Of a DNA stretch of 64,000 nt, positions 12,259 through 32,875 are shown piece after piece; position 1 is the first letter of the stretch, and the number at the start of each line of letters is the position of its first letter. The stretch is from Flexistipes sinusarabici DSM 4947. GTDB taxonomy: Bacteria > Chrysiogenota > Deferribacteres > Deferribacterales > Flexistipitaceae. Under the pieces are notes generated by a model that did no database searches, was not told the origin of the DNA, and worked only from the letters and a program-made list of their open reading frames with translations. The position numbers were made by a program, and so were the translations under genes. The stretch covers positions 1,647,451-1,711,450 of the forward strand of contig NC_015672.1 in NCBI RefSeq assembly GCF_000218625.1, given 5' to 3'.

Positions 12259-12300
12259 GTATTAGGGGGGTATTAGAGGTATTAGGGAGTATTAGAGGTT
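12259..12300. repeat. C-free (GTATTAGRGG)n degenerate repeat directly after the phosphohexomutase stop codon
   Basis: gtattaggggggtattagaggtattagggagtattagagg. Confidence 0.65.
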
Positions 12301-12385
12301 CAATACTGTTTCCGCCTACGGGCATGCCTGTTAAGGTACTTAAAACTTAGTACTTAGCTCTTAACACTAATATTTCACTCCCTCT

Positions 12386-13981
12386 CTACCTCACTATATT
12401 AGGCGCACCTTTTATAATGCTTTTATCCACGTGATTTTCATAACGCTTGAAGTTCTCCACAAACTTACCTGCCAGTTGATTCAGTGTTTCATCATACGCA
12501 TTTTTATCATCCCATGCCAAAGCCGGATTAAGCACGTCCTTAGGCACATTTGGAGCTTCCTGTGGAACAAGAAAGCCAAAAACATCATTTGCCGCATACT
12601 CAACATCTTCCAGTTTACCGTCCAGAATTGCATTAATTATTGATCTAGTGTGCTTTATTTTAAATCTTGAACCTACTCCGTACGGGCCTCCCGTCAAACC
12701 GGTGTTAACAAGCCAACACTTAACATCGTGTTTTTCCACTTTTTCACCCAGGAGTTTTGCATAGACCGACGGATGGTGAATCATAAACGGAGCACCGAAA
12801 CAGGCGCTGAAAGTTGCTTTGGGCTCTTTTACCCCTTTTTCCGTTCCTGCAACCTTGGCCGTATACCCGGAAATAAAATGGTACATAGCCTGACTTGTGC
12901 TTAATCTTGCAACAGGCGGCAAAACACCAAAAGCATCATATGTCAGAAAAATTATATTATCCGGAGCAACAGCTTTACCGTCTTCCACAATATTCGGCAG
13001 ATGAGTAATGGGATAAGACGCCCTGGTGTTTTCAGTAAGTGAATCATCATCCAGATCGACATATCTTGTTCTGGAATCTATAGTAACATTTTCAAGTATC
13101 GTTCCGAATTTTCGTGTACATTCATATATATCCGGTTCAGCTTCCGCAGATAAATTTATTACTTTGGCATAACATCCGCCTTCAATGTTAAATATTCCTT
13201 TTTCACTCCATCCGTGCTCATCATCTCCCACCAAAGCCCTTCCGGGATCTGTGGAAAGAGTCGTTTTGCCCGTCCCGGACAATCCGAAAAAAAGTGAAGT
13301 ATCACCATTTTTCCCGACATTTGCAGAACAGTGCATTGAAAGTATCTCCTTTTTAGGCAAAAGGTAGTTCATCACACTGAAAATAGATTTTTTTATTTCA
13401 CCGGCATAGCTGGTACCGCCTATCAGCACCAAACGTTTGTTAAAATTGATTATAATAAAAGTTTCTGAGTTTGTTCCATCCACTTCAGGTATAGCATGGA
13501 AACGGGGAAGATCGATAACTGTAAAATCCGGTTGGAACCCTTTCAGTTTACTTCTGTCCTCTTCCCTGACAAACATATTTCTTGCAAAAAGGTTGTGCCA
13601 CGCCGTTTCAGAAATAACCCTTACTTTTATCCTGCTGCTTTCATCTGTACCTGCATAACATTCCTGAACAAACAAATCTTTTGTCTGTAGATATGATCTC
13701 ATTCTGGTAAAAATTTTTTCAAAATTTTCTTCACTGATCGGTTTGTTATCTTTAGACCAGTTCACATCATCCAGTCCCTTAGATTCAACAATAAATTTAT
13801 CGTTAGGTGACCTGCCGGTGTGATGCCCTGTGCGCACCACAAGCGGCCCCAAGTGTGCCAATATCCCTTCCCTTCTCATAATGGACTGCTCGTATAATTC
13901 CGGTGTGGATAAGTTCCAGTATATCCTGGATAAATTATCGAGTCCCAGCGATTCCAGGCCGGTAATTTCCGTTTTAGCCAT
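12386..13981 (-). CDS. pckA: Phosphoenolpyruvate carboxykinase (ATP)
   Basis: Kinase-1a motif FFGLSGTGKTTLS. Start chosen at MAKTEITG. Confidence 0.9.
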   Translation of the reverse strand: MAKTEITGLESLGLDNLSRIYWNLSTPELYEQSIMRREGILAHLGPLVVRTGHHTGRSPNDKFIVESKGLDDVNWSKDNKPISEENFEKIFTRMRSYLQTKDLFVQECYAGTDESSRIKVRVISETAWHNLFARNMFVREEDRSKLKGFQPDFTVIDLPRFHAIPEVDGTNSETFIIINFNKRLVLIGGTSYAGEIKKSIFSVMNYLLPKKEILSMHCSANVGKNGDTSLFFGLSGTGKTTLSTDPGRALVGDDEHGWSEKGIFNIEGGCYAKVINLSAEAEPDIYECTRKFGTILENVTIDSRTRYVDLDDDSLTENTRASYPITHLPNIVEDGKAVAPDNIIFLTYDAFGVLPPVARLSTSQAMYHFISGYTAKVAGTEKGVKEPKATFSACFGAPFMIHHPSVYAKLLGEKVEKHDVKCWLVNTGLTGGPYGVGSRFKIKHTRSIINAILDGKLEDVEYAANDVFGFLVPQEAPNVPKDVLNPALAWDDKNAYDETLNQLAGKFVENFKRYENHVDKSIIKGAPNIVR

Positions 13982-14043
13982 CTCTAATACCCCTCTGTTT
14001 TTTTTGTTGAAAATATATGACATTTTAAACTATAATTTTCAAC

Positions 14044-14361
14044 ATGAATTGTAAACAGGATTTTATTTTTTTTGAAAAGGCCGATGAAAAGGAAATAAAA
14101 AAGGAAAAAGAGAAAGCAAGGTCTTTGAAAAAAAAGCAATGGTGGAAAAATAAACTGGCTTCTGGTATATGTCACTACTGCGGGAAAAAAGTGGGGCGGG
14201 AAAACCTCACGATGGATCATGTTGTACCGTTAATCAGAGGCGGCAAGTCCACAAAAGGTAATATTGTTGCTGCATGCAAAGAGTGCAACAGCAAAAAGAA
14301 ATACATGACACCTGTTGAGTGGGAAGAGTATATACAAAAATTGAAAGGGGAAGACGGTTAA
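14044..14361 (+). CDS. Stand-alone HNH endonuclease-domain protein
   Basis: HNH motif CHYCGKK...DHVVP...CKECNSKK. Length 105 aa with a basic N-terminal tail. Confidence 0.7.
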   Translation: MNCKQDFIFFEKADEKEIKKEKEKARSLKKKQWWKNKLASGICHYCGKKVGRENLTMDHVVPLIRGGKSTKGNIVAACKECNSKKKYMTPVEWEEYIQKLKGEDG

Positions 14362-16979
14362 TGACGGGAAAAGAAATCAGACAAAAATTTTTGGATTTTT
14401 TTGAACAAAAAGATCATACAATAGTAAAATCTTCATCGCTGGTTCCGGAAAATGACCCCACACTTTTGTTTACAAATGCCGGAATGAATCAGTTCAAGGA
14501 TACCTTTCTGGGTGTGGAAAAACGGAACTATTCCAGAGCCGCAACTTGCCAGAAGGTAGTCAGAGCAGGCGGCAAACACAATGACCTTGAGAATGTTGGC
14601 AGGACAGCACGACATCATACGTTTTTTGAAATGCTCGGAAATTTTTCTTTCGGGGATTATTTCAAAAGAGGTGTTATAAATTATGCATGGGAATTTCTCA
14701 CGGAGGTCTTGGGGCTTGATAAGGAAAAATTATACATCTCCGTTTTTCATAAGGATGATGAAGCTTTTAACATATGGAAAAACGAAATCGGCATACCGGA
14801 GGAAAGAATTTCAAAACTGGGGGAAAAAGAAAATTTCTGGTCTATGGGTGACACTGGGCCATGCGGTCCGTGTTCTGAAATTCATATAGACCAGGGTCCC
14901 AAAATTGGATGCGGCAGGAGTGACTGCGATCCTGAATGTGACTGCGACAGATTTTTGGAACTTTGGAATCTCGTATTTATGCAGTACGACAGAGATGCTG
15001 AAGGAACCCTGCATCCACTGCCCAAACCCAGCATAGACACGGGAATGGGGTTGGAGCGTATAGCAGCAGTTGTCCAGAATGTCACAAGTAACTTTGATAC
15101 AGACCTCATCAGACCAATCATTGAAGAAACGTCATCCATTGCCGGGATCAGGTATAAAGATAATGAAAAATTTGATATCAGTCTCCGTGTGATAGCTGAT
15201 CACGCCAGAGCAACAACATTCTTAATTTCAGACGGCGTTATACCTGCAAATGAGGGGCGCGGATATGTGCTGAAAAGGATTATGCGCAGAGCCATGAGGC
15301 ACGGGAGACTTATCGGTATTAAAGAGAACTTTTTCTATAAAATTTGTGAATTTGTAGTGGATTTTATGAGTGATCATTACCTGGAGCTTGTTGACAAGAA
15401 AAATTATATTTCCAAAATTGTTAAACAGGAAGAAAGCAGGTTTAAAAATACATTGACAACCGGTCTGAAAATTACCGAGTCACTTATAGAAAAATACAAA
15501 TATGACAAATATATACCCGGAAAAGAAATATTCACCCTTTATGATACATACGGATTCCCCGTGGATCTGTTAGAGGATATTGCGGAAGAAAACGGATTCA
15601 GCTTAGATATGGAAGGTTTTAAAAAGGAAATGTCCGCTCAGCAGGAAAAAGCTAAAAGAGCCTGGAGCGGCAGCGGAGATACCGCAGTTGATGAAAGATT
15701 TAAAAAACTTGCATCAAAATTCAGAACTGAATTTGACGGATATGACAAACTTTCCTTAGAAAGTGAGATTCTCGGAATCATTAGCAAAGGAAATAACACA
15801 GAAGAGGCAAAACAGGGAGATAAAATCGAAATAATTCTGTCAAAAACTCCCTTTTACCCGGAAGGTGGAGGAGAGACAGGTGATAAAGGTTATATAAAAA
15901 GTGACAATGCCGTAGCGGAAGTAAAAGATACAAAAAAATATGCCGAATCACTAATAGTTCATGAGGCTGAAATATTAAACGGTACTTTAAAGGTGGGGGA
16001 GATTATAACAGCAGAAGTGAACAGTGAATTTCGTAAAGCGGTTGAAAAAAACCATACTTCCACTCACTTGATTCACAAAGCTCTCAGAGAGGTATTGGGT
16101 GACCACGTGAGGCAGTCAGGTTCACTTGTGGATTCGGAAAAGCTGCGTTTTGATTTCACACACTTTTCCCCATTAAGCAGGGAAGAAATTGTAGAGATAG
16201 AAAATATAGTAAATAAAAAGATTCAGGAGAACCTCCCTGTAAAAAAGGAGATTACGGATATAGATTCTGCAATACAAAAAGGTGCAATGGCAATATTTGG
16301 AGAAAAATACGGTGATACAGTCCGTGTGGTTTCTGTAAATGATTTTTCCAAAGAGCTGTGCGGAGGCTGCCATGTCAATTATACGGGTGAAATCGGCCTG
16401 TTCAAAATTACAACGGAAACCAGTGTGGCATCAGGGATAAGAAGAATAGAGGCACTCACAGGTATCAAAGCATTTGAAGAGCTGTCCAAAATTTACAGAA
16501 TGGCGGAAGATACGGCCGGACTATTAAAAACATCCATTTCAAAATTGTTTGAAAGTGTTGATTCTCAGAATAAAAAGGTAAAAGAACTGGAAAAGCGGCT
16601 GAAAGAACTGAAAGACAAACTTAATTCACGGCAAACGGAGAAACTGCTCGAAAATGTGAAAGAGAAAAACGGAATAAAAATTCTCACATTAAGAGCTGAT
16701 GAACAGGATATAAATTCCCTGCGAAACATGACCGATGTTGCAAAAGCCAAACTAAAATCCGGTATTGTCGTTATAGGCTCAGAAAACAAAGGCAAAGCAG
16801 TTTTCATATGCGGCGTCACAAAAGATCTTACTGACAGATACAAGGCAGGCGATATTGTAAAGAAAGTGGCAGCCGTCTGCGGAGGCAGCGGAGGCGGAAA
16901 GGCTGAAATGGCACAGGCCGGAGCAAAAGACATAAATAAGATTGATGAAGCCCTCGAAACGGTTTATAATATATTATAA
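14361..16979 (+). CDS. alaS: Alanine--tRNA ligase
   Basis: Class II aaRS motifs. C-terminal editing-domain zinc motif HTSTHLIH...CGGCHV. Start at MTGKEIRQKFLDFF. Confidence 0.95.
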   Translation: MTGKEIRQKFLDFFEQKDHTIVKSSSLVPENDPTLLFTNAGMNQFKDTFLGVEKRNYSRAATCQKVVRAGGKHNDLENVGRTARHHTFFEMLGNFSFGDYFKRGVINYAWEFLTEVLGLDKEKLYISVFHKDDEAFNIWKNEIGIPEERISKLGEKENFWSMGDTGPCGPCSEIHIDQGPKIGCGRSDCDPECDCDRFLELWNLVFMQYDRDAEGTLHPLPKPSIDTGMGLERIAAVVQNVTSNFDTDLIRPIIEETSSIAGIRYKDNEKFDISLRVIADHARATTFLISDGVIPANEGRGYVLKRIMRRAMRHGRLIGIKENFFYKICEFVVDFMSDHYLELVDKKNYISKIVKQEESRFKNTLTTGLKITESLIEKYKYDKYIPGKEIFTLYDTYGFPVDLLEDIAEENGFSLDMEGFKKEMSAQQEKAKRAWSGSGDTAVDERFKKLASKFRTEFDGYDKLSLESEILGIISKGNNTEEAKQGDKIEIILSKTPFYPEGGGETGDKGYIKSDNAVAEVKDTKKYAESLIVHEAEILNGTLKVGEIITAEVNSEFRKAVEKNHTSTHLIHKALREVLGDHVRQSGSLVDSEKLRFDFTHFSPLSREEIVEIENIVNKKIQENLPVKKEITDIDSAIQKGAMAIFGEKYGDTVRVVSVNDFSKELCGGCHVNYTGEIGLFKITTETSVASGIRRIEALTGIKAFEELSKIYRMAEDTAGLLKTSISKLFESVDSQNKKVKELEKRLKELKDKLNSRQTEKLLENVKEKNGIKILTLRADEQDINSLRNMTDVAKAKLKSGIVVIGSENKGKAVFICGVTKDLTDRYKAGDIVKKVAAVCGGSGGGKAEMAQAGAKDINKIDEALETVYNIL

Positions 16980-16995
16980 AATTAAGGGGGAAAAA

Positions 16996-17364
16996 ATGAA
17001 CGAGTTTGCCAGAAAATTTTTCCTGGCCGGTTTAGGCCTTGCTGCAACAACAGAAAATAAAGCCAAAAATGCCTTTAATGAGCTGATCCAGAAAGGTGAG
17101 AATTTACAGTCCAAAGAAGCTAAGTTTCTCAAGGAAGTAATGGACTCTACAGAGAAGACAGCTGACGAATTTTCGGATCGTTTTGATGATTTAAAAAACG
17201 AGTTTATGCAAAAAATGGGCGCAGTCTCCAAAAAAGAGTTCGAAGATTTAAAAAACAGTGTGAATAAACTGAAAAAACAAAATGATGAACATAATGAAAA
17301 CTTAGAGAAACTTACCGGAGAGATAAAAAAGCTAAAGAATGAACTTAACAAAAAAACAGGTTAA
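16996..17364 (+). CDS. Phasin-like coiled-coil protein
   Basis: 122-aa alpha-helical protein with a good RBS (ggggg) upstream. Confidence 0.35.
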   Translation: MNEFARKFFLAGLGLAATTENKAKNAFNELIQKGENLQSKEAKFLKEVMDSTEKTADEFSDRFDDLKNEFMQKMGAVSKKEFEDLKNSVNKLKKQNDEHNENLEKLTGEIKKLKNELNKKTG

Positions 17365-17980
17365 GGAAATAAACAAAGTAAGAGCCGGTTGTGAAAAGCT
17401 GGATTACTGCGTTTATACCACTTTTTCCTTATACAACAGATTCAAAATTGATATCCCGAGAAGGCAAGCGGCTATACTAGTGCCGCTTTATTTTTTAAAT
17501 AACGAATGGTACATAATTTTCACCAAAAGAACAAACCACCTCCCCTATCACAGCGGAGAAATCTCTTTTCCCGGCGGCTCAAGGGAAAAACAGGATTCGG
17601 GCAAAAAGGAGACCGCATTAAGGGAAACTGAAGAGGAAATAGGAATTCCCAGAGAAGCCATGACTATATTAGGTAAGCTGGATGACCAGCTTTCAGTAGC
17701 TGATATCAATGTCACACCTTACGTTGCCAAAATAACAGATCTTACCGCTTTAACACATATGAAACCACAGGAAAGTGAGGTTGAAGAAATATTTCAGGTA
17801 CCTCTGCATTTTTTTTACCGTAAAAGCACATTCTGGTATGAAAATTGGATAAGAAACAAACAGCCGCACAAAGTATACTTTTACAATTTCAACGGCCGTA
17901 TCATATGGGGGCTGACAGCAAGGGTGGTTAAGAATCTGATTGAACTCCTTGAATTTTGCAACACCTGCGAAGAAAACTGA
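17339..17980 (+). CDS. Nudix hydrolase (CoA pyrophosphatase-like)
   Basis: Nudix box GGSREKQDSGKKETALRETEEEIG. Confidence 0.75.
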   Translation: MNLTKKQVKEINKVRAGCEKLDYCVYTTFSLYNRFKIDIPRRQAAILVPLYFLNNEWYIIFTKRTNHLPYHSGEISFPGGSREKQDSGKKETALRETEEEIGIPREAMTILGKLDDQLSVADINVTPYVAKITDLTALTHMKPQESEVEEIFQVPLHFFYRKSTFWYENWIRNKQPHKVYFYNFNGRIIWGLTARVVKNLIELLEFCNTCEEN

Positions 17981-18161
17981 TTCCTGTTTATTATTTATGA
18001 ATTTATGCAGTTTTCGTAAACAAAACAAACTATTTCAAAAAATAAAAACTTGTTGTTGTCAAAGGCACTTTTATATAATAAAAGACTTGAATAGAAGTGT
18101 TTAACTTCTGTAAATTTTAAGAGTTCAGAGGCAGAGCTTATAAAATAACAGGGAGTGGTAA

Positions 18162-21100
18162 ATGTTTAATATTTCTTTTTTAACCGGCAGCGAAATCAAA
18201 GAAAGGAAAAATATCGAAACGGTAAAAAAAAGGCATAATGAGGTCTTCGGCAAATTCAGACAAACAAATCCGCCTTTTTATTTTTTCACGGAAATATTCA
18301 TTATGCAGCTCCCCCTGAATTTTCTTGAGATACTAACGGATACGGATCTTCTGGAATTCCTGAAATTTTTGTTTGAAGATTTTAACGAAAGAAAAAAGAA
18401 AAAATACCGGATGAATTATACCACACCTTTCAACTCGTCCTTTTTTATAGGCAATTTCTCACTTATTACTCTTTCCACAGATGACAGGCCGTTTCTCGTA
18501 GACAGTATCAGAGAATATTTCTTCGAGGCTAATATTTCCCAGCAGTTTATACTGCATCCGATATTCAGCGTAAAACGCAACAACAAAGGAGATATTACAG
18601 ATATCAAAGACGCAGATATAGGAACCAAAAATGAATCCTATGTCGTTGTTTTTCTGGAAAACGTTGAAGAACCTGAATTTAAAAAAATCCGTTCGGAAAT
18701 TAAAAAGATATACAATGAAGTAATACTTGCTGTGGACGACTTTCCATCCATGAGTAATCTACTGAAAAACTTATCCGAGTCATACAAAAATATCACTCCT
18801 GAAGTATCAGAATTTATCGATTGGCTGATGAACGAGAATTTTATTTTACAGGGCGTAAGGATTTTAAAAAACGTTAACCTGCAAACGGGCGATTATTCAA
18901 TGGAACAGTTTGGCGTTTATAAACTTAACAGAACACTTTCATTAATCCCCTCAATAATTAAAGCAATACAGTCAAACAGATTAAAATATATAAACAATTA
19001 TCCCATTGTGGTGGATAAAGCCATACATGAATCCAAAGTTAAGAAAAGAATAAAATACGACCGGGTAATGATTACCGATTTTAATGAAAACTCCTGCACA
19101 GTCATAACACTTATCGGTGTCTTTTCCAAAGAAGCAATCAACACTCCGCCTTATAAAATCAGCATTTTAAGAAAAACAATTGCAGAGGTTTTCAATTATT
19201 TCAAATTTGTGCAGGGCTCACACGATTTCAAGTGGATTAGAGACATTATAAATTACTACCCCAAAACAGAAATATTTAATTTTGACAGAGACACGCTAAT
19301 TGATATTCTTGAAACTATTCTTTCCCTGCAGGGGAAAAATCAGATCAGACTGTACTGGAAAGACTTCAGACCGCTGAAGAATTTTTACATACTTCTTGCC
19401 ATCCCTTCCGAAAAATTTTCAAACGAGCTTATCAGAGAACTGAGCGGCAACTTCGCCGAAATACTCAGGGCAAATTTACTGGATTTAACGACCCGCAGCG
19501 ATGAGCACGGTTATCATTTAATACACTTTCACTTTTACCTGAAGGATTTAAACACTTTGGACAAATTGAAAGACAGTGATTTAAAAGAAATGGTGCAGGG
19601 CATCCTGAAAGACTGGGATGACGAACTTTATGAACTGCTTTCCATAAGATATTCCGGTTTAAAAACCGATCAGATTTATCATTCTTTTGTAAATTCGTTC
19701 TCTGAGAATTATAAAACGAGGCTCAGCCCCCGGGAAGGCGCATTTGACATATCATATCTTATAAAATTTAAGGGTCTTAGATCGGCTATTTATCATGAAA
19801 ATGATAAAATAGTATTAAAAATATACTCCGAAGAAAAGATTCTTCTTACTGATATCATGCCTGTTATTAATAACATAGGTTTAAAAGTACACGAGGAGGA
19901 AATATATACACTCTCCACAAAGGGTAAATCGTATTACATAAGCAATATCTATCTCGCCGAAATCGATAATAACAAAAAATTTGCCGACATTTACGGAGAC
20001 AAACTCTCTGAAATCCTGACAGCCGCAATGACAGAAAAGGTTGAAAACGACAGACTGAACAAATTGCTGGTTCTTGCCGAACTGAGCTACAAGGAAATAG
20101 ACGTTTTGCGGGGGCTGAGGAACTATGTTGAACAGATAAATTACACATTCAGCAGACAGTCTATTAATGAAACACTAATTAACAATCCGAAAATTGCAAA
20201 GCTTCTTTTCCAACTTTTCGATGAGAAATTCAATCCTTCCTGCAGCAAAAGGGATACAGAAGCTTTGGAGAAAAAGCTGCTTGAAGAAATTGACAAAGTA
20301 TCTTCTGTTCTTGGGGATTCAATATTAAGGCATCTGCTGAAAACAATAAACGCCGCCAGCAGAACAAATTATTACCAAACACCTGTCAGAAATTATATTT
20401 CATTCAAAATTCGAAGTAGCACATTGGATATTTTACCGGAACCCAAACCGATGTTTGAAATATATGTACACGGACCGCATATGGAAGGGGTTCATCTTAG
20501 AGGAGGAAAAGTAGCCAGAGGCGGCTTACGCTTCAGCGACAGGTTCGACGACTTCAGAACGGAAATTATGGGGCTTTTGAAAACACAGATGGTAAAAAAT
20601 ACAATCATTGTTCCGGTGGGCTCAAAAGGTGGATTTATAGTCAAAAAACGCTTTCAGGACATTGACAAAGACAGAGCTTTTGTAGTGGAGCAATACAAAA
20701 ATTTCATACGTGGTCTTCTCGACTTAACAGACAATTATGCGGGTAAAAAGATTATTCAGCCTGAAAACACAGTAATATATGATGATAAGGACCCTTATCT
20801 TGTTGTTGCCGCAGACAAAGGAACCGCCACATTCAGCGATGTTGCCAACTCCGTTTCCAAGGAATACAATTTTTGGCTTGGGGATGCATTCGCCTCAGGC
20901 GGCAGTGAAGGTTACGATCACAAAAAGGTGGGAATAACAGCCAGAGGCGCCTGGGAATGTGTAAAGAGACACTTCCGGGAGCTTGATAAAAACATTTCAA
21001 AAGAGGACTTCACAGTTGTCGGTATCGGCGACATGAGCGGGGACGTTTTCGGTAACGGCATGCTTTTATCGCGTAAAATAAAACTGCTCGGAGCATTTAA

Positions 21101-22859: not shown

Positions 22860-22871
22860 AAAGGGGAAAGA

Positions 22872-24227: not shown

Positions 24228-24262
24228 TTAAAGGAATTCAGGGGGCTTAAAGCCCCCTTTGT
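24228..24262. terminator. Bidirectional hairpin terminator between convergent genes
   Basis: agggggcttaaagccccct flanked by T/A runs. Confidence 0.55.
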
Positions 24263-24264
24263 AG

Positions 24265-24927: not shown

Positions 24928-25222
24928 ACTGCACCTCCTAATAGCTTTTATTCAGTAGAATTATATCACAGAAAAAAGTTCATTTACAATATAAACCATT
25001 CTTGGCGCCCTCCTAAAAATTCCACATTTAAAATCCGTGATGCGTAATGAGGAGATATTTGATGTTATTGAGGTAATAAGGGTCTTAGGGGTAGTATGGG
25101 TTGTAGATGTATTAAATAAGTTAAGAGGTAATCGTGCAAACAATTATATCAACTCCCTAAATATCTGCCTCAATCTGGACTTTTCTCCTTGGCTCTGTAA
25201 ATTTAACGCTTAGTACTTAGTA

Positions 25223-25310
25223 CTAATAACCAATACACAAATATACCAATTTACCACTCATCCATTACTCCACTATTCCAATATCCTACTCAACCTTTTT
25301 AACTTTATCA
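25223..25310. repeat. G-free block of about 90 nt adjacent to the 25339 minus-strand gene stop
   Basis: ccaatttaccactcatccattactccactattccaatatcctactcaacc... No G. Confidence 0.6.
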
Positions 25311-25338
25311 ACCACTTCAAGTTCAGCAATCTGAATTT

Positions 25339-26448: not shown

Positions 26449-26469
26449 CTTTATCCGAAAAAAATAACT

Positions 26470-27699
26470 TCAGTAGAGTTTATCCAATAACCCCTGACCT
26501 TCATATGGGGCTTTTTCAACCAATGTCCCTACTTTTAACCTCGATTTAGCTGACTCATTACCCTTAATAATTACCCATGCGCTGTTCTGATTCACTTGGT
26601 TCGTAACTATCATATTTACAGGTATTGTTGACTTATAACACTCAACTTCCCCGGTCATAAAATCTTTTATGGCTGCAAATTGATATGCTTCAACAGTATC
26701 ACCCGGTTTAATACCGTCACTTTTGCCGATAGAAATCAAAGCCACAGATTTCCCGCCCCTGAGCTGGTTGATATAACCGCGAGCATTAAATATCTCTGAA
26801 AAAACAGATTTTATATCTGTGACAGATTCGCCCATGGCTTTCTTAGCTGCAGAAATAATTAATTCAGGATTAAATGCCGGCTGAACACCGCCAAGTTCTC
26901 TTCCTCTGACTTTTTTGGAAACAAGAACCTGCCCTGTGGCAACATCTATCAGTTGAATTGTCATTTCTGTTGTAACATTCCAGCCTTCCGTCATTGATTT
27001 TGCCACTGCTTGGGTGAGGTTTAACCATGCATTGCCCGTGTCTTTAAATTTTGTTTGGGGGATATATCTTGCATTTATATAATCTACGCTTCCGGAAATT
27101 ATATAATCCACTCCTGCCAGTTTGCCAAATTTTACGACAGTATTCTGATCCGCAAGATTCATTTGAAAATTCTGTTCATCAAGGACATTCTGCATCTGTG
27201 ACCTTGTAAACACATCTACGCCGCCGAGATTTACTATTGTATTCTCAACTGCAGACTGGGCAAATTCACCTATCTTAGGAGCTATTTGACGCATAAATGT
27301 ATTAACATTGCCGGAATATTTAATATCTGTTCTGCTGGCTCCGGCATAACCTAAACCGGCAGCCCCCGGCCCGACAATGACTCCCGCCGCTCCTGCCTGT
27401 CTGCGATTGATATCTGCCCGCCCCTCGATCTGTGAGTTCCGGACTGTCATTTCACCATATATTGTATTATTAAGAAATGGAACAACCGCTACTCTGTAGA
27501 TTTTACTTTTATACTGGGATTTACAGGCATCAGGGATTACAACCTGCTCCTGATCTTCCTGTTTAATCTGCATGGACAGCGGATCAAGTTTCGGCGGAGC
27601 GCATGAAATGGTAAAAAAAAATGTTATAACTGTAAGCAGAAAAAACTGAAAGAAATATCTTTTCACCCATTCCCTCTGAACAAAATATCGATTAGACAC
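26470..27699 (-). CDS. CsgG-family lipoprotein
   Basis: Lipobox (FTISC). CsgG-like segments RVAVVPFLNNT and GVDYIISGSV. Confidence 0.55.
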   Translation of the reverse strand: MSNRYFVQREWVKRYFFQFFLLTVITFFFTISCAPPKLDPLSMQIKQEDQEQVVIPDACKSQYKSKIYRVAVVPFLNNTIYGEMTVRNSQIEGRADINRRQAGAAGVIVGPGAAGLGYAGASRTDIKYSGNVNTFMRQIAPKIGEFAQSAVENTIVNLGGVDVFTRSQMQNVLDEQNFQMNLADQNTVVKFGKLAGVDYIISGSVDYINARYIPQTKFKDTGNAWLNLTQAVAKSMTEGWNVTTEMTIQLIDVATGQVLVSKKVRGRELGGVQPAFNPELIISAAKKAMGESVTDIKSVFSEIFNARGYINQLRGGKSVALISIGKSDGIKPGDTVEAYQFAAIKDFMTGEVECYKSTIPVNMIVTNQVNQNSAWVIIKGNESAKSRLKVGTLVEKAPYEGQGLLDKLY

Positions 27700-27738
27700 T
27701 TACTCAATATTACCATGAATAAAAACCAATGAAAAAAC

Positions 27739-28407
27739 TTATTGTTTAAGATTCAGAATTTTCATAACCTCCTGCAAATCCTCCCAGGCAGGTCTTTTCA
27801 TCTTCGGATTTCTTAATAAATAAGCGGGGTGAAATGTGGGCATTAATTTAATACCGTTTAGTTCTGTAAACTTACCCCTTAACCGGGAAATACCTTTTTC
27901 GGTATTCAGCAGTGCCTGCGCCGCAACACCGCCCAAAGAGATAATCACTTCGGGCTTAATTATTTCAATCTGTTTATATAAATAGCCTATACAGGTGGAT
28001 ATTTCATCTTTAAAAGGATTTCTGTTCTGTGGAGGTCTGCATTTTACAATATTTGCTATAAATACATCTTCCCTTTCCAGACCCATAGCATTGATCATTT
28101 TGGTAAGAAGCTGCCCTGCCCTGCCCACAAAAGGGCGCCCCTGTCTGTCCTCTTCAGCACCGGGACCTTCACCGATAAACATAAGACGCGCATCGGTGTT
28201 GCCTTCACCAAACACAACGTTTGACCTTGTTTTGTGCAGGGGGCATTCCACACATACTGAAACTTTATCAAACAAAACCTGCATTTCTCTGTTCATATCT
28301 TCCGCAACATAACCCGTTTCTGATGAATTTTCGCTAACACGGGAATGTCCCTCTTTTTCATCAAAAAGTAAAAATTCCACTCCATATACATCTTTTAGAA
28401 TATCCAT
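27739..28407 (-). CDS. Uracil-DNA glycosylase, family 4
   Basis: GEGPGAEEDRQGRPFVGRAGQLL motif. Confidence 0.85.
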   Translation of the reverse strand: MDILKDVYGVEFLLFDEKEGHSRVSENSSETGYVAEDMNREMQVLFDKVSVCVECPLHKTRSNVVFGEGNTDARLMFIGEGPGAEEDRQGRPFVGRAGQLLTKMINAMGLEREDVFIANIVKCRPPQNRNPFKDEISTCIGYLYKQIEIIKPEVIISLGGVAAQALLNTEKGISRLRGKFTELNGIKLMPTFHPAYLLRNPKMKRPAWEDLQEVMKILNLKQ

Positions 28408-28509
28408 ATTAAACGCCTTTTTATGTTTCTGGAAGTGAGACTTAAGTAATATTTGTTTGAAAAATGATTAAGTAGTTAAGTGGTCAAATTATTACTTAAT
28501 AATTTAACC

Positions 28510-28575
28510 ATCTCTCTGCTTTCTACTTCACCATTTCACCCAAACCCATAACCCATAACCCATCACGATATCACG
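28510..28575. repeat. G-poor block with (CCCATAA)n adjacent to the coaBC stop codon
   Basis: cacccaaacccataacccataacccatcac. Confidence 0.6.
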
Positions 28576-28607
28576 CATCACGGCGTTTTACCGCAGTACT
28601 TCCTGAC

Positions 28608-29852
28608 TTATTTAAAACCTTTTTTATTCTTAAAAATATTTACAGCAAAATTAAGTATATCCTCAGCAATTTCACTTTTTCTCTTTTTACCAATATGTTC
28701 CACCTTTCCGTCTGCAAAAAATACAGTAACTTCATTGTACAAAGAATCAAATCCTATATCTTTTCTGGAAATATCGTTAGCCACTATCATGTCAAGCTTT
28801 TTGTCTTTCAGTTTTTTCAACGCATTTTCCTGTAAATTGTCACTCTCAGCGGCAAATCCCACAAAAACCTGATTTTTACGTTTATATCCAGAAATTTCCT
28901 GAAGGATATCAGGGTTTTTCTCAAGGTCAACACACATATGACCATTATTCTTTTTGATTTTGGAAGAAAAATATTTTTTTGGCTTATAATCCGCAACTGC
29001 GGCAGCCATTATCAAAATATCGCATTCGGAAATAAAATCATTAACCCTTGCAAGCATATCACCAGCTGTATCAGCAAAAACAGCCGGATAATGCGCTTCA
29101 ACGGATGACGGACAGATAAGACGAAAACTGCCCCCTCTTTTCTTTACGCTGTCACAAAAAGCCAGCCCCATTTTCCCACTGGATTTGTTCGATATGAACC
29201 TAACAGGATCAATATACTCTTTTGTCCCTCCAGCCGTTATAAGAAAGTTTATATTTTTATATTCCTCACGGCTTTTCAACCTTGAATCAACCAAATCAGC
29301 CAAATCTTCCGGTTCAGGCATTTTCCCGATTCCCACATCCTTACATGCCAAATTCCCAATAACCGGATCCACAATTTCATATCCTAACTCATAAAGTCCG
29401 GCCAGATTGTTCTGATTCTGACGGCTTTCATACATAACGGTGTTCATGGAAGGTACAACTATCAAAGGTACATCATCAGGTTTTGCCAAAACCGAAGATG
29501 TAAGGAGGTTATCGGCTATTCCATAAGAAATTTTCGCAATCGTATTAGCCGTTGCAGGAGCTATTACAAAAACATCAGCCCACTTCACAAGATCAATATG
29601 ATAAATATTGTCAGGTTCTTCCCCTTCCCTGAAATCATCAATGTATACTCTCTCATGCGTTAGTGATTCAAAAGTCAGCGGAGTAATAAATTTGGTTGCA
29701 GCTTCCGTCATAATAACCCTAACACTATGCCCTTTATCCAAAAGCCTTCTGCACAGTGAAGGAATTTTGTAACAGGCAATACCACCCGTTACACCAATCA
29801 AAACATTACTCATCAGATTCTCCAGTTTCCTTTTTAACAGGCTCAAAAGCAA
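28608..29852 (-). CDS. coaBC: Bifunctional phosphopantothenoylcysteine decarboxylase / phosphopantothenate-cysteine ligase
   Basis: N-terminal flavoprotein domain plus C-terminal DFP domain. Length 414 aa. Confidence 0.9.
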   Translation of the reverse strand: MLLSLLKRKLENLMSNVLIGVTGGIACYKIPSLCRRLLDKGHSVRVIMTEAATKFITPLTFESLTHERVYIDDFREGEEPDNIYHIDLVKWADVFVIAPATANTIAKISYGIADNLLTSSVLAKPDDVPLIVVPSMNTVMYESRQNQNNLAGLYELGYEIVDPVIGNLACKDVGIGKMPEPEDLADLVDSRLKSREEYKNINFLITAGGTKEYIDPVRFISNKSSGKMGLAFCDSVKKRGGSFRLICPSSVEAHYPAVFADTAGDMLARVNDFISECDILIMAAAVADYKPKKYFSSKIKKNNGHMCVDLEKNPDILQEISGYKRKNQVFVGFAAESDNLQENALKKLKDKKLDMIVANDISRKDIGFDSLYNEVTVFFADGKVEHIGKKRKSEIAEDILNFAVNIFKNKKGFK

Positions 29853-30039
29853 TTTTACCGTTTATTATTTCTGAAAGAGCCTTAGTAGTATATTTATCGT
29901 AATTTTCTTCCTGACAGGGGAGCGTATCTTCTTTGGGATTAAGGAGTTCCCTGGAACGTAAGCCGGCCAGACGAACAAGCCTGAATCTACTTTTAATTTC
30001 CTTTTTTCTGACACCTTTTTCAATATCAAGTAATGGCAT
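29806..30039 (-). CDS. rpoZ: DNA-directed RNA polymerase subunit omega
   Basis: SRFRLVRLAGLRSREL motif. Conserved gmk-rpoZ-coaBC order. Confidence 0.7.
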   Translation of the reverse strand: MPLLDIEKGVRKKEIKSRFRLVRLAGLRSRELLNPKEDTLPCQEENYDKYTTKALSEIINGKIAFEPVKKETGESDE

Positions 30040-30723
30040 TTAAACCTCCAGTTTCATAATATCTTCTATATTTTCGATTTCCAACGTCTTTAAATGTTCA
30101 GCAACAAATATACATTCCAACTCATAAAAAGCTTTATTATAATTATCATTCAGAATTAAATAATCGTAATTTTTATAGTATCTTACTTCCTTAATTGCAT
30201 TTTGCAATCTTTTATTAATCTTTTCCTCACTTTCACTGCGCCTTTTCTTAAGCCTGTTTTCCAATTCTTTAAGACTTGATGCAACTATAAAAATATATAC
30301 TCCGTATCCCAGCTTTTTCCTCAGAATCCTTGCTCCCTGAGGGTCGATATCCAGAATAACATCATAACCGTTTTTCAGCTGCTGCTTTATAAAATCGGCC
30401 GATGTGCCGTAATAATTCTCATGAACAACAGCCCACTCGATAAAATCTCCGTTCTCTATCATCTGATTGAACTGATTTTCATCAACAAAAAAGTAATCTT
30501 TTCCATCTTCCTCATTTTTCCTCGGTTTTCTGGTGGTATGTGATATAGAATATTTCAAATCAGGGTATTTTTTAATCAATCTGTTGCACAGACTCGTTTT
30601 CCCGGCACCGCTCGGTGCACTTACAACAAAAAGCTTACCCGGACTTTTAGCAATATCTTGGTTAGACAATATTCTGTACCTGCTCTCTGATCTTATCAAT
30701 TTCACTCTTTGCAGAAACGACAA
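30040..30723 (-). CDS. gmk: Guanylate kinase
   Basis: P-loop SAPSGAGKTSL. The true start may be an internal non-ATG codon. Confidence 0.85.
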   Translation of the reverse strand: MSFLQRVKLIRSESRYRILSNQDIAKSPGKLFVVSAPSGAGKTSLCNRLIKKYPDLKYSISHTTRKPRKNEEDGKDYFFVDENQFNQMIENGDFIEWAVVHENYYGTSADFIKQQLKNGYDVILDIDPQGARILRKKLGYGVYIFIVASSLKELENRLKKRRSESEEKINKRLQNAIKEVRYYKNYDYLILNDNYNKAFYELECIFVAEHLKTLEIENIEDIMKLEV

Positions 30724-31534
30724 TGTTCACCACATCTGCTGAGTTGCTTTTCGAACCAATTGTATTGAATTCTCTGTGAAGCTCCTGCGATATAAAATCA
30801 AGTTTTTTACCGCAGAAATCCTCCTTCTCCAGCGTGCTCATAAATTGATTAAGATGTGAATCAACTCTTACCACTTCTTCGGTAATATCAGCCTTCTCTG
30901 CATAAAAACCTGCTTCCTGGGTAATTCTGTCCTCCTGGGCTTCTATATCCAGCTTCTCCATCCGTTTTTTAAATTTATCAAACCAATAATCAAAAACACT
31001 GTTCTTCAAGTTATCTATCTTTTTTGCCGATTCCTTAAGTCTTTCTATTCTTTCCTTTAAATCATTATAAAGGTTTTCTCCTTCTTTCTGCCTCATACTG
31101 TTAAGCTCCTGGAGCGCCTGGCTGACAGAATCCTTTATGAATGCACCCACCTTCTCTTCAGTCTCTTTGTCTTCATTAAATTCCAATATATCATCGTAAT
31201 GAATCAGATGGTCTATACGGATATCATCCAAAACCTCGCTTTCCATCTGTATTTCCCTGAGAGCATCAAGATAAAGGTTGAGCATGTTGTGGTTTATTTT
31301 CGGTATTTTAACAGGTTTCCTGAACTGCACATCCACACTTATGTCAATTTTACCTCTCAGAGCTTTTTCCCTGAAAATATTCATCAGATCGATTTCAAGA
31401 TAATTGAATAATTTCGGAAGCCTGAATCTTAAATCGAGATATTTGCTGTTTACACTTTTGATTTCAGTTTTCACATAACAGAAATCGTTCGCAAGAAAAT
31501 TCCTCCCAAAACCGGTCATACTTAAAATCATCAA
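30662..31534 (-). CDS. yicC: YicC-family stress-induced protein
   Basis: N-terminus MMILSMTGFGR plus the C-terminal DUF1732 region. Length 290 aa. Confidence 0.8.
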   Translation of the reverse strand: MMILSMTGFGRNFLANDFCYVKTEIKSVNSKYLDLRFRLPKLFNYLEIDLMNIFREKALRGKIDISVDVQFRKPVKIPKINHNMLNLYLDALREIQMESEVLDDIRIDHLIHYDDILEFNEDKETEEKVGAFIKDSVSQALQELNSMRQKEGENLYNDLKERIERLKESAKKIDNLKNSVFDYWFDKFKKRMEKLDIEAQEDRITQEAGFYAEKADITEEVVRVDSHLNQFMSTLEKEDFCGKKLDFISQELHREFNTIGSKSNSADVVNIVVSAKSEIDKIREQVQNIV

Positions 31535-31607
31535 AACACCTTTATTATTTAAATTTAATAAGTTATAATAAACGTTAATAGTACAAAATATTCAACAGGA
31601 GGTCAAT

Positions 31608-32393
31608 ATGTTTAATACCACAACATTGATTGCGATAATTATTTTGCTTGTGTTGTCTTTACTCGTTAATATCCTTAAAATTTTAAGGGAATATGAGCGC
31701 GGAGTAGTTTTCAGACTGGGTAGGTTTGTAGGAGTAAGGGGCCCCGGGTTAATTATTCTGATTCCTTTTATAGAAAAACTTGTAAAAGTTAACCTGAGAA
31801 CCGTTGTTATGGACGTACCCCCTCAGGATGTAATTACCAGAGATAACGTTTCAGTAAAGGTAAATGCGGTGGTCTATTTCAGAGTCGTACACCCTGATAA
31901 AGCAATTCTGGAAGTGGAAAATTATCTGACAGCCACATCCCAGCTCTGTCAGACAACATTGAGAAGTATAATCGGACAATTTGAACTGGATGACATACTC
32001 TCCAACAGAGATAAAATAAACAGTGATCTACAGTCGGTTATCGATTCACAGACCGATCCTTGGGGAGTAAAGGTGAGCGCTGTGGAAATAAAACATATCG
32101 ATTTGCCTAATGAAATGCAGAGAGCAATGTCAAAGCAGGCTGAAACAGAAAGAATAAGGAGATCCAAGGTAATCAATGCTAACGGTGAACTGGAAGCTGC
32201 CGAAAAGCTTTCCCAGGCAAGTGACATAATGTCCACCAATCCGATAACCATTCAGCTGAGATATCTTCAGACTCTCAACGAAATCGGCAACGAGAAAAAT
32301 TCCACCATTGTTTTCCCAATTCCAATAGAAATGTTTAAACTTTTTGAAAAATTTATGAAGGATGATAACAAAGACGAGAAAACAAGAGAGTGA
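31608..32393 (+). CDS. SPFH/band-7 (stomatin/slipin-like) membrane protein
   Basis: N-terminal TM helix plus band-7 domain (VVFRLGRF...VITRDNV). Confidence 0.8.
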
Positions 32394-32510
32394 GAGAGTG
32401 AGATAGTGAGGTAGGGAAATAGTGAGATATTGAGGTAGGGAAATAGTGAAATAGGGAGATAGGGAGATAGGGAATTAGGGAATTAGGGAGATAGGGAATT
32501 AGAGATGAGT
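32394..32510. repeat. C-free degenerate minisatellite with G3 tracts ((A)TAGGGA(R)T / TAGTGAG units)
   Basis: About 115 nt immediately after the SPFH gene stop with no C. gggagatagggagatagggaattagggaattagggagatagggaa. Confidence 0.7.
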
Positions 32511-32804
32511 TTTAAATACCTTATTTCACAAACAGACAGAGCAGGACAGGTTTTTACCAATTAATAACTATGAATAAATCAAGTTTCGCACTTGCACATA
32601 TTACGCGTCTTTGTTCACCCTGTTAAATATCAGCTTCGCTGATTGCCTGTGGCATTTAACAGAGCAAGGGGTGATGACGACGAAGCAATCTCTCTTTTTA
32701 TATTATTTTGAGATTTCGAAACTTAAATAAATAACGATAAATAACTATATTTTACTAACATTGAACTTAAAATGTTGAACGTTGAACCTTGAACTTAGAA
32801 TATA

Positions 32805-32875
32805 TCCCTTAACCCATAACCCATAACCCATCACCCATCACCCATTACCCATTACCCATCACGGCATCACGGCAT
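32805..32875. repeat. G-free telomere-like minisatellite (CCCATAA/CCCATCA)n; complement is (TTATGGG)n
   Basis: aacccataacccataacccatcacccatcacccattacccattacccatcac. Confidence 0.7.

Follow-up and report, generated by a model that had tools for sequence, protein, structure and literature searches.

Tandem-array mosaics at gene boundaries of Flexistipes sinusarabici: variable sequence and copy number, probably conserved position and strand polarity

Here we report that the three-letter (C-free or G-free) blocks dispersed through intergenic DNA of Flexistipes sinusarabici DSM 4947 are, very probably, mosaics of short tandem arrays with 7-, 8- and 9-nt units, which slippage or unequal recombination makes and constantly reshapes, the degenerate arrays being length-stable relics. 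The window, by which we mean the whole 64-kb stretch of this member of the Deferribacterota (host GC 37%), has ∼11% of its intergenic DNA in such mosaics. Comparison of sequences among strains and species suggests that what is kept is probably the position at a gene boundary together with a strand-asymmetric, structure-free, three-letter-like composition, whereas neither the sequence nor the G-quadruplex (G4) motifs are kept.

Results

Abundance and unit types of the arrays

The window contains 32 C-free or G-free runs that are 40 nt or longer, as against 12–18 in shuffles that kept composition in blocks of 200–2000 nt (0 of 300 shuffles reached 32), and runs of at least 80 nt number three, with 0.01–0.09 expected from the same shuffles. 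Such runs are thus far more frequent than local composition would give. Every block listed by an earlier, sequence-only reading was recovered, at its own position or close by. The principal runs are as follows:

12254–12300, C-free
12358–12401, G-free
25044–25083 and 25085–25132, C-free, with a single C between them
25221–25320, G-free, 100 nt
28519–28566, G-free
32384–32518, C-free, 135 nt
32799–32862, G-free
62117, 62770 and 63429 (starts), C-free GGTTTTA arrays of 42 nt each

Among the runs of ≥40 nt, 13 have a retained G or C of at least 30%, and 12 of these are intergenic, although intergenic DNA makes up ∼14% of the window. Both TRF and our own scan identified the three-letter runs as tandem arrays, with period 7 the commonest (193 nt at ≥90% self-match, all intergenic) and period 8 second. 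Copy numbers range from 3 to ∼15 units, and a scan of the window found array units in intergenic DNA only. There are five unit types, and units are shared among at least six intergenic loci:

Type A, C-free 8–9-mers, e.g. GAGATAGG
Type B, ACTTAGY
Type C, GTTGAAC
Type D, ACCCATA
Type E, CATCACGG

Three of the six unit types are three-letter ones, and B, C and E contain all four bases. In a perfect array, a three-letter composition follows in part trivially from the repetition of a short unit; the long degenerate A arrays are the only ones in which it carries meaning.

The proposal that the blocks form a dispersed composite family is borne out by units that recur at separate loci, identical or 83–100% similar: the sequence at 28543–28566 is the same as that at 32811–32834, 7300–7324 resembles 32452–32476, and 12340–12372 resembles 25203–25235, while 12369–12397 and 32403–32431 are 83% complementary. 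Module order is repeated as well, with A beside B' at four loci and D followed by E at four loci. The ACTTAG-type companion repeats, also noticed by the sequence-only reading, are real, and lie at 7276–7296, 12338–12365 and 25208–25221 and at no other place in the window.

Placement and strand polarity

The arrays of the window are listed here with the strand on which they are read:

7240–7321, − strand: composite directly after the stop of an EamA-family gene, the stop TAG lying inside the first unit; order on the − strand A (tgagatggtgagataggg, C-free), B' (GCTAAGT x3, 7276–7296), C (TTGAACGTTGAAC, 7252–7265)
12259–12300, + strand: A-type array (GTATTAGGG / GTATTAGAG, x4), sense strand C-free; its first base is the base right after the PGM/PMM stop TAA
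12336–12388, − strand: A-type array (aatatagtgaggTAGagagggagtgaaata) overlapping the last codons and TAG stop of the PEPCK gene, then B' heptamers GCTAAGT ACTAAGT TTTAAGT
25030–25132, − strand: degenerate D-E block (...acccatactacccctaag...cattacgcatcacgg), sense strand C-rich and nearly G-free, ∼40 nt upstream of the −35 of a promoter-like site (24989–24960) of a DJ-1/PfpI gene
25205–25320, − strand: degenerate A-type array of period 8 (TAnTGGnn), its sense strand free of C for 100 nt, beginning 18 nt past the stop of a FlgT_N-like lipoprotein gene and followed by B' (GTACTAA x2)
28440–28585, − strand: composite 3' of the coaBC stop; order on the − strand E' (CCGTGATG CGTGATA TCGTGATG), D' (GGGTTAT x3), A (GGTGAAATGGTGAAGTAGAAAGCAGAGAGATGG), B-like TTAAGT motifs (28440–28500)
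32384–32518, + strand: A-type period-8 array (GAGAGTGA ... GAGATAGG ... AATTAGGG), ∼15 units, 135 nt, no C; the Band7/QmcA stop TGA sits within its first units
32770–32876, + strand: C-D-E composite, the C-rich strand being the sense strand; order (GTTGAAC)x3, (ACCCATA / ACCCATC / ACCCATT)x8, (CATCACGG)x2.5; the SRP RNA gene (32993–33091) follows 117 nt downstream
35129–35195, + strand: A'-E-like block (aatctctcaaaacatctacctctatacctcactaacatccc gcattatacattacgcgtaacgg), the C-rich strand being the sense strand, ∼20 nt upstream of the TTGACT −35 that precedes lrgA; an additional member, absent from the earlier list
62117–62158, 62770–62811 and 63429–63470, + strand: (GGTTTTA)x4 arrays, CRISPR locus
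62275–62295, 62928–62948 and 63587–63607, + strand: (GTTGAAC-like)x3 arrays, CRISPR locus

Both kinds of CRISPR-locus array fall entirely within three identical leader-like segments, the C unit of which is shared with 7252–7265 and 32774–32794.

Placement relative to gene ends is non-random, as had been proposed. All six A arrays lie at, over or near a stop codon with a G-rich, C-free sense strand, four blocks start at or overlap the stop, and the stop codons of the EamA, PEPCK and Band7 genes are themselves array units. The D-E blocks have a C-rich sense strand and are found 5' of promoters; those at 25060–25130, 32805–32875 and 35129–35195 are 100–410 nt from the stop and just upstream of the promoter of the next gene. 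The claim that the G-rich version would form the mRNA 3' end in every gene-adjacent case therefore holds for the A arrays (6/6) but not for these three blocks, whose sense strand is C-rich. A single rule covers both classes: the G-rich strand points 5' to 3' away from the nearest gene boundary in nine of nine non-CRISPR blocks (binomial 0.002), a statistic that comes from one 64-kb window and to which the cross-species sites, being orthologous and hence not independent, cannot be added. Co-directional genes flank four of the six after-stop arrays, a setting that offers no evident source of antisense transcription. The adjacent genes have no functional theme, and PGM, PEPCK, coaBC and SRP RNA are housekeeping genes.

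The same polarity is apparent in composition and predicted structure. When all 78-nt windows of both strands are ranked by their excess of C over G, the C-rich strands of the arrays take ranks 1–6 and 8, with C−G of 25 to 33 in the top six compared with a mean of 1.2 (sd 7.2) over all 78-nt windows. Few RNAs of the window are predicted to be as unstructured as the long arrays, which have minimum free energies (MFE) of −0.5 to −3.2 kcal/mol per 67–135 nt, whereas genome windows of the same length give −8 to −21 kcal/mol; the value is −1.6 kcal/mol over 135 nt for 32384–32518 and −0.5 kcal/mol over 103 nt for 25030–25132, the least structured among the genome windows sampled. Convincing hairpin terminators were found at 9776, 24240, 38928 and 40459, all in array-free spacers, and none was found in the array spacers of the window; at gene ends the comparison is 0/6 with arrays versus ∼7/26, which with so few sites is not significant.

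Comparison among strains and species

Six assemblies of F. sinusarabici, near-identical in the flanks of the arrays, were compared. Perfect arrays differ among strains by whole units and by the exchange of unit variants. The region containing the 28440–28585 D array measures 47, 61, 103 or 110 nt, in steps of 7, and the array itself has 3 to ∼12 units with ACCTATA and ACGCATA variants, while the 32770–32876 composite has a different unit number and different variants in each strain; blocks of the variant units ACGCATA, ACCTATA and AACCATC have been amplified in some strains. The 32384–32518 A array measures 57, 81 or 121 nt depending on the strain, in steps of 8, and contains zero C in each strain even though its units are ∼20% divergent. 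The degenerate array at 25205–25320 is constant in length in five strains. The ACGCATA units that have spread add a G to the C-rich strand, and the D arrays of some strains tolerate them.

Three other Flexistipes species carry, at the same sites, arrays of the same polarity and of other sequence. A G-rich sense strand is kept at the ends of the PGM, PEPCK, EamA, Band7, coaBC and FlgT-like genes, and the D-E blocks lie upstream of the same promoters in other Flexistipes species. The 7240–7321 composite is found again in species A (L088); the C-free array of species B (L090) at this site is another one. The orthologue of the 12259–12300 site is (GTAGTAGGG)x5 in species A and a degenerate G-rich tract in species B, and that of 12336–12388 is a G-free run on the + strand of 80 nt in species A and 77 nt in species B. 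The site of 25205–25320 is near-identical in species A and holds a (GTTGAGnnn)x6 array instead in species B. In species B and C the 28440–28585 site has E and A with D missing, and the 35129–35195 site has an A'-D-E version with (CATCACGG)-like units at its end; species A has a shorter 32770–32876 composite, which species B and C have in degenerate form. Species D (L219) has a GC hairpin and a mere 24-nt G-rich stub in the PGM/PEPCK spacer. In 21-kb samples of Deferribacter and Calditerrivibrio we found no comparable arrays, so whatever role the arrays have is dispensable. Further afield, ACCCATA arrays are present in at least 120 unrelated metagenome contigs of 25–66% GC, often mixed with TAAC-NNN heptamers including ATAACTG.

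G-quadruplex motifs

It had been suggested that the arrays are G4/i-motif elements, whose phased GGG tracts would fold in 3' UTR RNA or non-template DNA and steer termination or transcript stability. We consider this improbable. The canonical motif (G3+N1-7 x4, that is, at least four G3 tracts with loops of ≤7 nt) occurs at 32454–32496 (+), 32806–32857 (−) and 28539–28561 (−), which is three per 64 kb against 0.18 expected, all three in arrays, and G4 folding has been shown in vitro for related GGGNATC repeats, which occupy the same kind of position in Xanthomonas and Nostoc (PMC4692102). However, the motif is missing from seven of the ten blocks, two of its three occurrences are antisense to the flanking genes, and the 100-nt A array at 25221–25320 has zero GGG. 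Other strains lose the motif through fewer copies or through ACCTATA and AACCATC unit variants: that of the 32384–32518 A array is confined to the DSM 4947 type, the four other strain types having three GGG tracts, and those of the D arrays (28440–28585 and 32770–32876) are lost in strains L086 and L084 and in species A. G4 capability does not survive as a conserved property, and the likeness to telomeric repeats is a surface resemblance only.

Discussion

The Flexistipes arrays resemble repeats already known from other bacteria, Xanthomonas and Nostoc among them, the GGGNATC class being the closest precedent. Rehm et al. (2015, PLoS One) described G-rich heptameric GGGNATC / GGGGA(C/T)T repeats in Xanthomonas and Nostoc that are in excess in non-coding DNA and lie near the ORF neighbouring the 5' side of their G-rich strand, either 3' of a stop on the coding strand or 5' of a start on the non-coding strand, with a preference for four units and with G4 formation (PMC4692102). 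Shared with the Flexistipes arrays are a strongly intergenic location, the placement rule, neighbours without a functional theme, and recurrence at common intergenic positions in related species, where length and sequence vary. The Flexistipes D' units GGGTTAT, GGGTGAT and GGGTAAT are, like the units of that class, tandem 7-mers with one G-tract, but they do not match GGGNATC, of which the window has no tandem copies, and the A units are of 8–9 nt; there is no four-unit preference, the G4 motif is often missing, and the arrays are modular mosaics with the four-letter companions ACTTAGY, GTTGAAC and CATCACGG. The hosts differ too, a 37% GC member of the Deferribacterota here as opposed to high-GC Xanthomonas and a cyanobacterium.

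The cyanobacterial STRR, short tandemly repeated repetitive heptanucleotide sequences, were reportedly described by Mazel et al. in 1990. Mixed heptamer assemblages with TAACTGA repeats have been reported by MacGregor (2015) in Beggiatoaceae, Cyanobacteria and Bacteroidetes (PMC4679880). Like these, the Flexistipes arrays are dispersed intergenic direct repeats of heptamers with several kinds per spacer, assemblies break inside them, and relatives have shorter or repeat-free spacers. Tandem TAACTGA, CCCCAGT, TTGGTCA or CAACAGT (the STRR1-3/TAACTGA units) were not found in the window, and TAACTGA sets lie just upstream of start codons, whereas the main Flexistipes class, from a different phylum, is at stop codons. 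With REP/BIME elements the arrays share a 3' extragenic location and a mosaic make-up from several short motifs. The BIMEs of enterobacteria are reported to influence mRNA 3' ends and Rho-dependent attenuation. REPs are, however, hairpin-forming imperfect palindromes, and the arrays are direct repeats without self-complementarity; three-letter arrays cannot make G-C pairs and so lack the REP/BIME stem-loop. We also rejected phase-variable contingency repeats, which would sit in a 5' coding region or between −35 and −10, switch expression by copy number and be linked to surface or virulence genes, as the arrays lie after stops or at least 20 nt upstream of a −35 and their neighbours are housekeeping genes. 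A MITE or other transposable element was rejected too, as conserved flanks and inverted repeats were not found and every species examined has arrays at the orthologous sites.

The related idea that the arrays are relics of MITE- or BIME-like elements inserted intergenically with internal tandem repeats is very improbable. The repeated juxtapositions (A beside B', D then E, four loci each) and a true MITE-like insertion at 6860–7190 that shares its spacer with one array would fit it, but terminal inverted repeats and target duplications are as lacking around the arrays as conserved flanks, the sequences that separate the modules are unrelated, A-B' and D-E modules are both found in either relative orientation, no presence/absence polymorphism was seen at the orthologous sites of the four species, and the self-complementarity of REP/BIME is absent. 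Only a little more can be said for a 3'-UTR RNA platform, in which C-free repeats would bind S1, Csp, CsrA or an Hfq-like protein, or the 16S anti-Shine-Dalgarno tail, and so make the mRNA 3' end more stable or retain ribosomes that have terminated; this is a doubtful proposition. Array starts exactly at stop codons, multivalency and a lack of structure that leaves the arrays accessible would all suit it, and binding of Csp, S1 or CsrA has been suggested by MacGregor for TAACTGA repeats (PMC4679880). Against it, predicted anti-Shine-Dalgarno pairing (0.349) is not higher than in composition-matched shuffles (0.336) and is almost nil in the 25221–25320 array, the (GTAGTAGGG)n allele of species A has no GGA (CsrA) motifs, no sequence motif is kept across loci and species, and the D-E blocks are oriented the other way.

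A purely (near-)neutral origin is a possibility to which we give limited credence. Seven-nucleotide units slip easily, and their by-products would last only where harmless, in 3' spacers and upstream of promoters; polarity would then be a tolerance filter, since sense-strand units with TAG or TGA keep the protein end at any copy number. The EamA, PEPCK and Band7 stops, formed by actual array units, agree with this, as do the hypervariability of the arrays, the loss of specific motifs between strains, the hairpin in place of an array in species D, the lack of arrays in the Deferribacter and Calditerrivibrio samples, the unrelated metagenome contigs and the functionally unrelated neighbours. An excess of heptamers is, moreover, a known general trait of bacterial genomes (Mrazek et al., summarised in PMC4679880). 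Neutrality leaves unexplained the C-free state of degenerate A arrays of 100–135 nt, which holds across species despite sequence turnover, the polarity rule in D-E blocks distant from stop codons, and the recurrence of unit families at many loci.

Slippage-made arrays whose position and polarity are kept, and whose most likely role would be directional insulation, may be the best explanation overall, and we put this forward tentatively, at slightly under even confidence. The role itself, insulation of transcription in one direction through Rho loading, is possible, but we suggest it with distinctly less assurance. A polymerase coming from outside, either an antisense one entering the 3' end or a read-through one nearing the next promoter, would transcribe the C-rich, G-free, unstructured strand, which has the properties of a rut site, while an outgoing polymerase would make C-free RNA that Rho could not use, and the arrays would stand in for hairpin terminators at these sites. 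One strand of each array is C-rich, G-free or G-poor and essentially unstructured over 45–135 nt, and rut sites are likewise C-rich, G-poor and unstructured over ∼70–80 nt; unlike the arrays, natural rut sites are neither tandem repeats nor hypervariable. Rho is found in >90% of bacteria (PMC11347177), and suppressing antisense transcription is a common role of the protein (PMC12360218). Nostoc, however, has the closest-precedent repeats and cyanobacteria lack Rho, and therefore Rho can be no universal explanation for this repeat class. In favour of insulation are the polarity rule, the unstructured C-rich strands, the location of the hairpin terminators in array-free spacers and the hairpin of species D; against it are the co-directional setting of four after-stop arrays, the small number of sites behind the terminator comparison, the G-containing D units of some strains and the lack of comparable arrays in the Deferribacter and Calditerrivibrio samples.

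Heptamer-class tandem repeats (STRR, TAACTGA, GGGNATC) are among the commonest unexplained intergenic features of bacteria, to which Flexistipes adds a new phylum. On a practical level, the arrays are useful as strain-typing markers for Flexistipes and cause contig breaks in metagenome assemblies. The multi-strain, four-species comparison separates the traits that change (sequence, copy number and G4 motif) from those that appear to be kept (gene-boundary position and strand-polar, structure-free composition), and the question moves from whether quadruplexes form to what senses strand composition directionally, for which Rho loading on incoming transcripts is a concrete hypothesis open to test. 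Taken to its limit, and unlikely as we think it, the arrays would be genus-wide selected, self-renewing repeat pads acting as one-way transcription valves, with strand-polar, structure-free three-letter composition as their only conserved property; they would load Rho on polymerases entering a gene from outside, be Rho-proof for those leaving, and take the place of hairpin terminators at no less than a fifth of gene boundaries. If true, such valve logic could account for the placement rule reported for the G-rich heptamers of Xanthomonas.

Three-letter runs in the window

At 37% GC, the window is a piece of ordinary bacterial chromosome and carries citrate synthase, PGM/PMM, PEPCK, alaS, large GDH, coaBC, UDG, Band7, SurA and AddAB genes together with a CRISPR locus; proteins AEI15201 to AEI15217 of DSM 4947 (Deferribacterota; genome 2,526,590 bp) fall within it. 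Each of the three-nucleotide blocks listed in the sequence-only reading was found in the sequence:

12254-12300, C-free run
12358-12401, G-free run
25044-25083 and 25085-25132, C-free runs
25221-25320, G-free run
28519-28566, G-free run
32384-32518, C-free run
32799-32862, G-free run
CRISPR region, three C-free GGTTTTA arrays of 42 nt

Comparison with shuffled expectation, which that reading had proposed as a check and which we ran on the window, revealed an excess. When composition is kept within 200-, 500- or 2000-nt blocks, 12-18 runs of ≥40 nt that lack C or lack G are expected and 32 were observed, a number reached in none of 300 shuffles; for runs of at least 80 nt, the same shuffles predict 0.01-0.09 and three were observed. 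Thirteen runs of ≥40 nt contain 30% or more of the base they retain (G or C); 12 of these are intergenic, and intergenic DNA makes up ~14% of the window. One G-free run of 106 nt (50997-51102, 13% C) is AT-rich promoter-type DNA outside the repeat family, and the length of a three-letter run alone is thus not diagnostic.

Tandem units and mosaic architecture

The blocks are tandem arrays, as identified with TRF and a self-match scan of the window, in which the commonest period is 7 (193 nt at ≥90% self-match, all intergenic), followed by period 8. They are built from the following units:

Unit A, C-free 8-9-mers such as GAGATAGG, TAGTGAGG and GTATTAGGG
Unit B, ACTTAGY
Unit C, GTTGAAC
Unit D, ACCCATA, with variants ACCCATC and ACCCATT
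Unit E, CATCACGG
Unit GGTTTTA, found in the CRISPR leader-like segments

Unit pairs with up to two mismatches are confined to intergenic DNA in the window, except for a few chance matches, and arrays account for ~11.5% of its intergenic sequence. Combined, the units form mosaics in the CRISPR leaders and in six spacers, the latter with these modules:

7240-7321, C' B A'
12259-12388, A, spacer, B, A'
25030-25320, E' D', spacer, B, A'
28440-28585, B-like, A', D, E
32384-32876, A, 250-nt spacer, C, D, E
35129-35195, A', E-like

Units common to different loci are 83-100% identical over 24-29 nt, which bears out the earlier description of a dispersed composite family. The three-letter property itself is less telling. 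A random heptamer in the F. sinusarabici genome lacks C or lacks G ~40% of the time, and only three of the six unit types have three-letter composition, so that repetition by itself largely accounts for the property in perfect arrays. Only in the long degenerate A arrays does it carry information: these are C-free across 100-135 nt although their units diverge by 20-25%.

The only Rfam match in the window is the SRP RNA (32993-33091), with no known RNA family over the arrays, and a tRNA search of the window found none. The 250-nt segment at 32520-32770, between the A array after Band7 and the C-D-E block, has 25 nt (…TCAAGTTTCGCACTT) in common with the spacer at 42593-42617 and may represent either a second dispersed element of small size or the gene of a small RNA; among the other Flexistipes species described below it is present in species A and missing from species B and C.

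Other repeats lie nearby. In the CRISPR locus (61886-64000; 36-nt repeat GTCGTAATCCCTTCTAATCAGGTCATGGATTCCAAT), three leader-like segments of identical sequence, each ~294 nt long (62111-62404, 62764-63057 and 63423-63716; period 653/659) and each with (GGTTTTA)x4 and (GTTGAAC)x3 heptamer arrays, interrupt the repeats and leave four or more short CRISPR arrays. The locus looks like a serial duplication of leader plus array, and adjoins an IS transposase gene (DUF772/DDE, 60337-61704, - strand). The DUF3568/EamA spacer contains a MITE-like insertion of ~330 nt (~6860-7190) with inverted repeats both at its ends (ggcatcacccc... / ...ggggtgacgtc) and internally (6924-6956 / 7083-7115); in two other Flexistipes species (L088, L090) the orthologous spacer lacks it. 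Three 20-nt direct repeats (GTGTCAAATTGAGTAACAAA) at 47360-47423, in a 460-nt spacer by a WYL-domain regulator gene (47511-48425, - strand), look operator- or iteron-like.

Placement and strand polarity

The blocks had been described as lying directly after stop codons, with the G-rich version in the mRNA in every gene-adjacent case. This holds for the A-type arrays, whose sense strand is the G-rich, C-free strand in six of six cases. Four of them begin at or over the stop codon, namely those of EamA (TAG/tgagatgg), PGM (TAA/gtattaggg), PEPCK (aatatagtgaggTAGagaggg) and Band7 (agagagTGAgagagtgag), and those of the FlgT-like gene and coaBC begin 18-30 nt from it. The three D-E blocks (25030-25132, 32799-32876 and 35129-35195), in contrast, are separated from the preceding stop codon by 100-410 nt and precede the -35 of the next promoter by 20-40 nt. 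In these the C-rich strand is the sense strand, and the generalisation to every case is therefore wrong. A different rule covers both kinds of array: in nine of nine blocks the G-rich strand points away from whichever gene boundary is nearest (binomial p ~0.002). A replication-linked, KOPS-like polarity was rejected because polarity tracks genes, both orientations adjoining at 12259-12388.

Variation within the species and conservation within the genus

In six other assemblies of F. sinusarabici the flanks are almost identical and the arrays differ. The region with the D array in the spacer after coaBC measures 47, 61, 103 or 110 nt, in 7-nt steps, with blocks of ACCTATA or ACGCATA units amplified, and the A array after Band7 measures 57, 81 or 121 nt, in 8-nt steps. 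The D array before the SRP RNA is different in each strain, for example (AACCATC)x4, and the degenerate arrays at 25030-25320 are of constant length. These dynamics are those of classic slippage or unequal exchange, with birth, expansion and decay of arrays. Several metagenome contigs end within array interiors.

A genome-contig search with PEPCK returned relatives at ≤65% identity only and hence no orthologous spacers. Three further Flexistipes species were retrieved (species A, L088/L212; species B, L090/L214; species C, L216; PGM within 90% identity for the first two), and these have arrays at the same sites with unchanged polarity and largely different sequence. After PGM, species A has (GTAGTAGGG)x5 where DSM 4947 has (GTATTAGGG)x4; the PEPCK end is covered by G-free + strand runs of 80 nt (species A) and 77 nt (species B); species B has (GTTGAGnnn)x6 after the FlgT-like gene; and A'-D-E blocks lie upstream of lrgA and the SRP RNA. 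In L212 (species A), from ~13325 onward, the degenerate D-E block after the FlgT-like gene is truncated by unrelated sequence, starting with a new ORF (…atgaagaaacgaagagtttac…), which suggests an insertion or rearrangement exactly at the array.

In a fourth, more distant species (L219, PGM 80% identical), the convergent PGM/PEPCK spacer orthologous to 12259-12385 is 58 nt long (3289-3346). Instead of arrays it has a GC-rich hairpin of the classical kind (cccgccc…gggcggg), with a G-rich stub of just 24 nt. At this one site, arrays and a hairpin terminator represent alternative states. Samples of 21 kb from Deferribacter desulfuricans and Calditerrivibrio nitroreducens contained no such arrays. 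Within the window, the convincing hairpin terminators (9776, 24240, 38928 and 40459) all lie in spacers without arrays, a link that the small numbers allow us to call only a trend.

RNA-level properties and possible function

The blocks had been proposed to be G-quadruplex (G4) capable. The window has three canonical G4 motifs against 0.18 expected, all of them inside arrays, but the motif is missing from seven of ten blocks, and the 100-nt A array at 25221-25320 lacks GGG altogether. The motif of the A array after Band7 is confined to the DSM 4947 type and those of the D arrays are lost in two other strains (L084, L086) and in species A; G4 potential therefore appears incidental and polymorphic. 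The C-freeness of the A arrays, in contrast, is invariant. As RNA, the long arrays are predicted to be almost structure-free: the minimum free energy is -1.6 kcal/mol for the 135-nt array (genome mean -21.5) and -0.5 kcal/mol for a 103-nt block. When 78-nt windows on both strands of the 64 kb are ranked by C>G, the C-rich strands of the arrays take the six most extreme places (3.5-4.5 sd); this is the textbook composition for Rho loading.

Several specific readings were discarded. Anti-Shine-Dalgarno pairing scored no better in arrays than in composition-matched shuffles, and no CsrA/GGA, TRAP-like (G/U)AG or KOPS-like motif persists across alleles. Pairing between G-rich and C-rich halves of a spacer seems unlikely: the units are out of register (8 vs 7 nt), and at 28510-28585 all modules are G-rich on one strand.

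The arrays are mosaics of tandem repeats driven by slippage. From strain to strain of the species they are hypervariable, and their position and composition are conserved within the genus. We infer that selection, or a strongly directional process, maintains a strand-polar, unstructured composition beside gene boundaries. As a mechanism we tentatively prefer a one-way transcription insulator acting via Rho: a polymerase heading into the adjacent gene would transcribe RNA resembling a Rho utilisation site and be removed by Rho, and one leaving the gene would make C-free, Rho-refractory RNA. Against this, Nostoc, which bears analogous repeats, has no Rho, and most after-stop arrays sit between co-directional genes. 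The main rival, also only a possibility, is that the arrays are a neutral by-product filtered by tolerance. Readings as G4 elements, RNA platforms or MITEs are less likely.

Membership of a known repeat class

The GGGNATC / GGGGAYT heptamer repeats of Xanthomonas and Nostoc are placed exactly as the Flexistipes arrays are; some overlap the stop codon, and they are conserved in position between given genes, with lengths that vary (Rehm et al. 2015, PMC4692102). An exact scan of metagenomes for CCCATAACCCATAACCC gave at least 120 stretches; among the matches listed, the loci range from 25% to 66% GC, are mostly gene-dense (median ORF coverage 0.89, loci ≥4 kb) and usually set the ACCCATA unit in mosaics with other heptamers (TAAC-NNN types, ATAACTG, CCCTAAA). 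The D unit is therefore one instance of the cosmopolitan heptamer repeats to which Mrazek et al. and MacGregor drew attention (PMC4679880). Array orientation across 80 of these loci was ~21:21 with a crude ORF caller, for which the TAA in every C-rich-strand unit artificially ends ORFs. Contigs from several metagenomes (L095, L100, L102, L114, L135, L143, L165, L170) are mostly long mixed heptamer arrays, with ACCCATA alternating with CCCTAAA / CCCTGAA, the plant-type telomere unit.

Our literature search found no paper tying Flexistipes to such repeats. The Flexistipes arrays belong to a class that has already been described, the bacterial intergenic heptamer-type repeats; what is new for that class is the phylum, the units and the modular A-E architecture.
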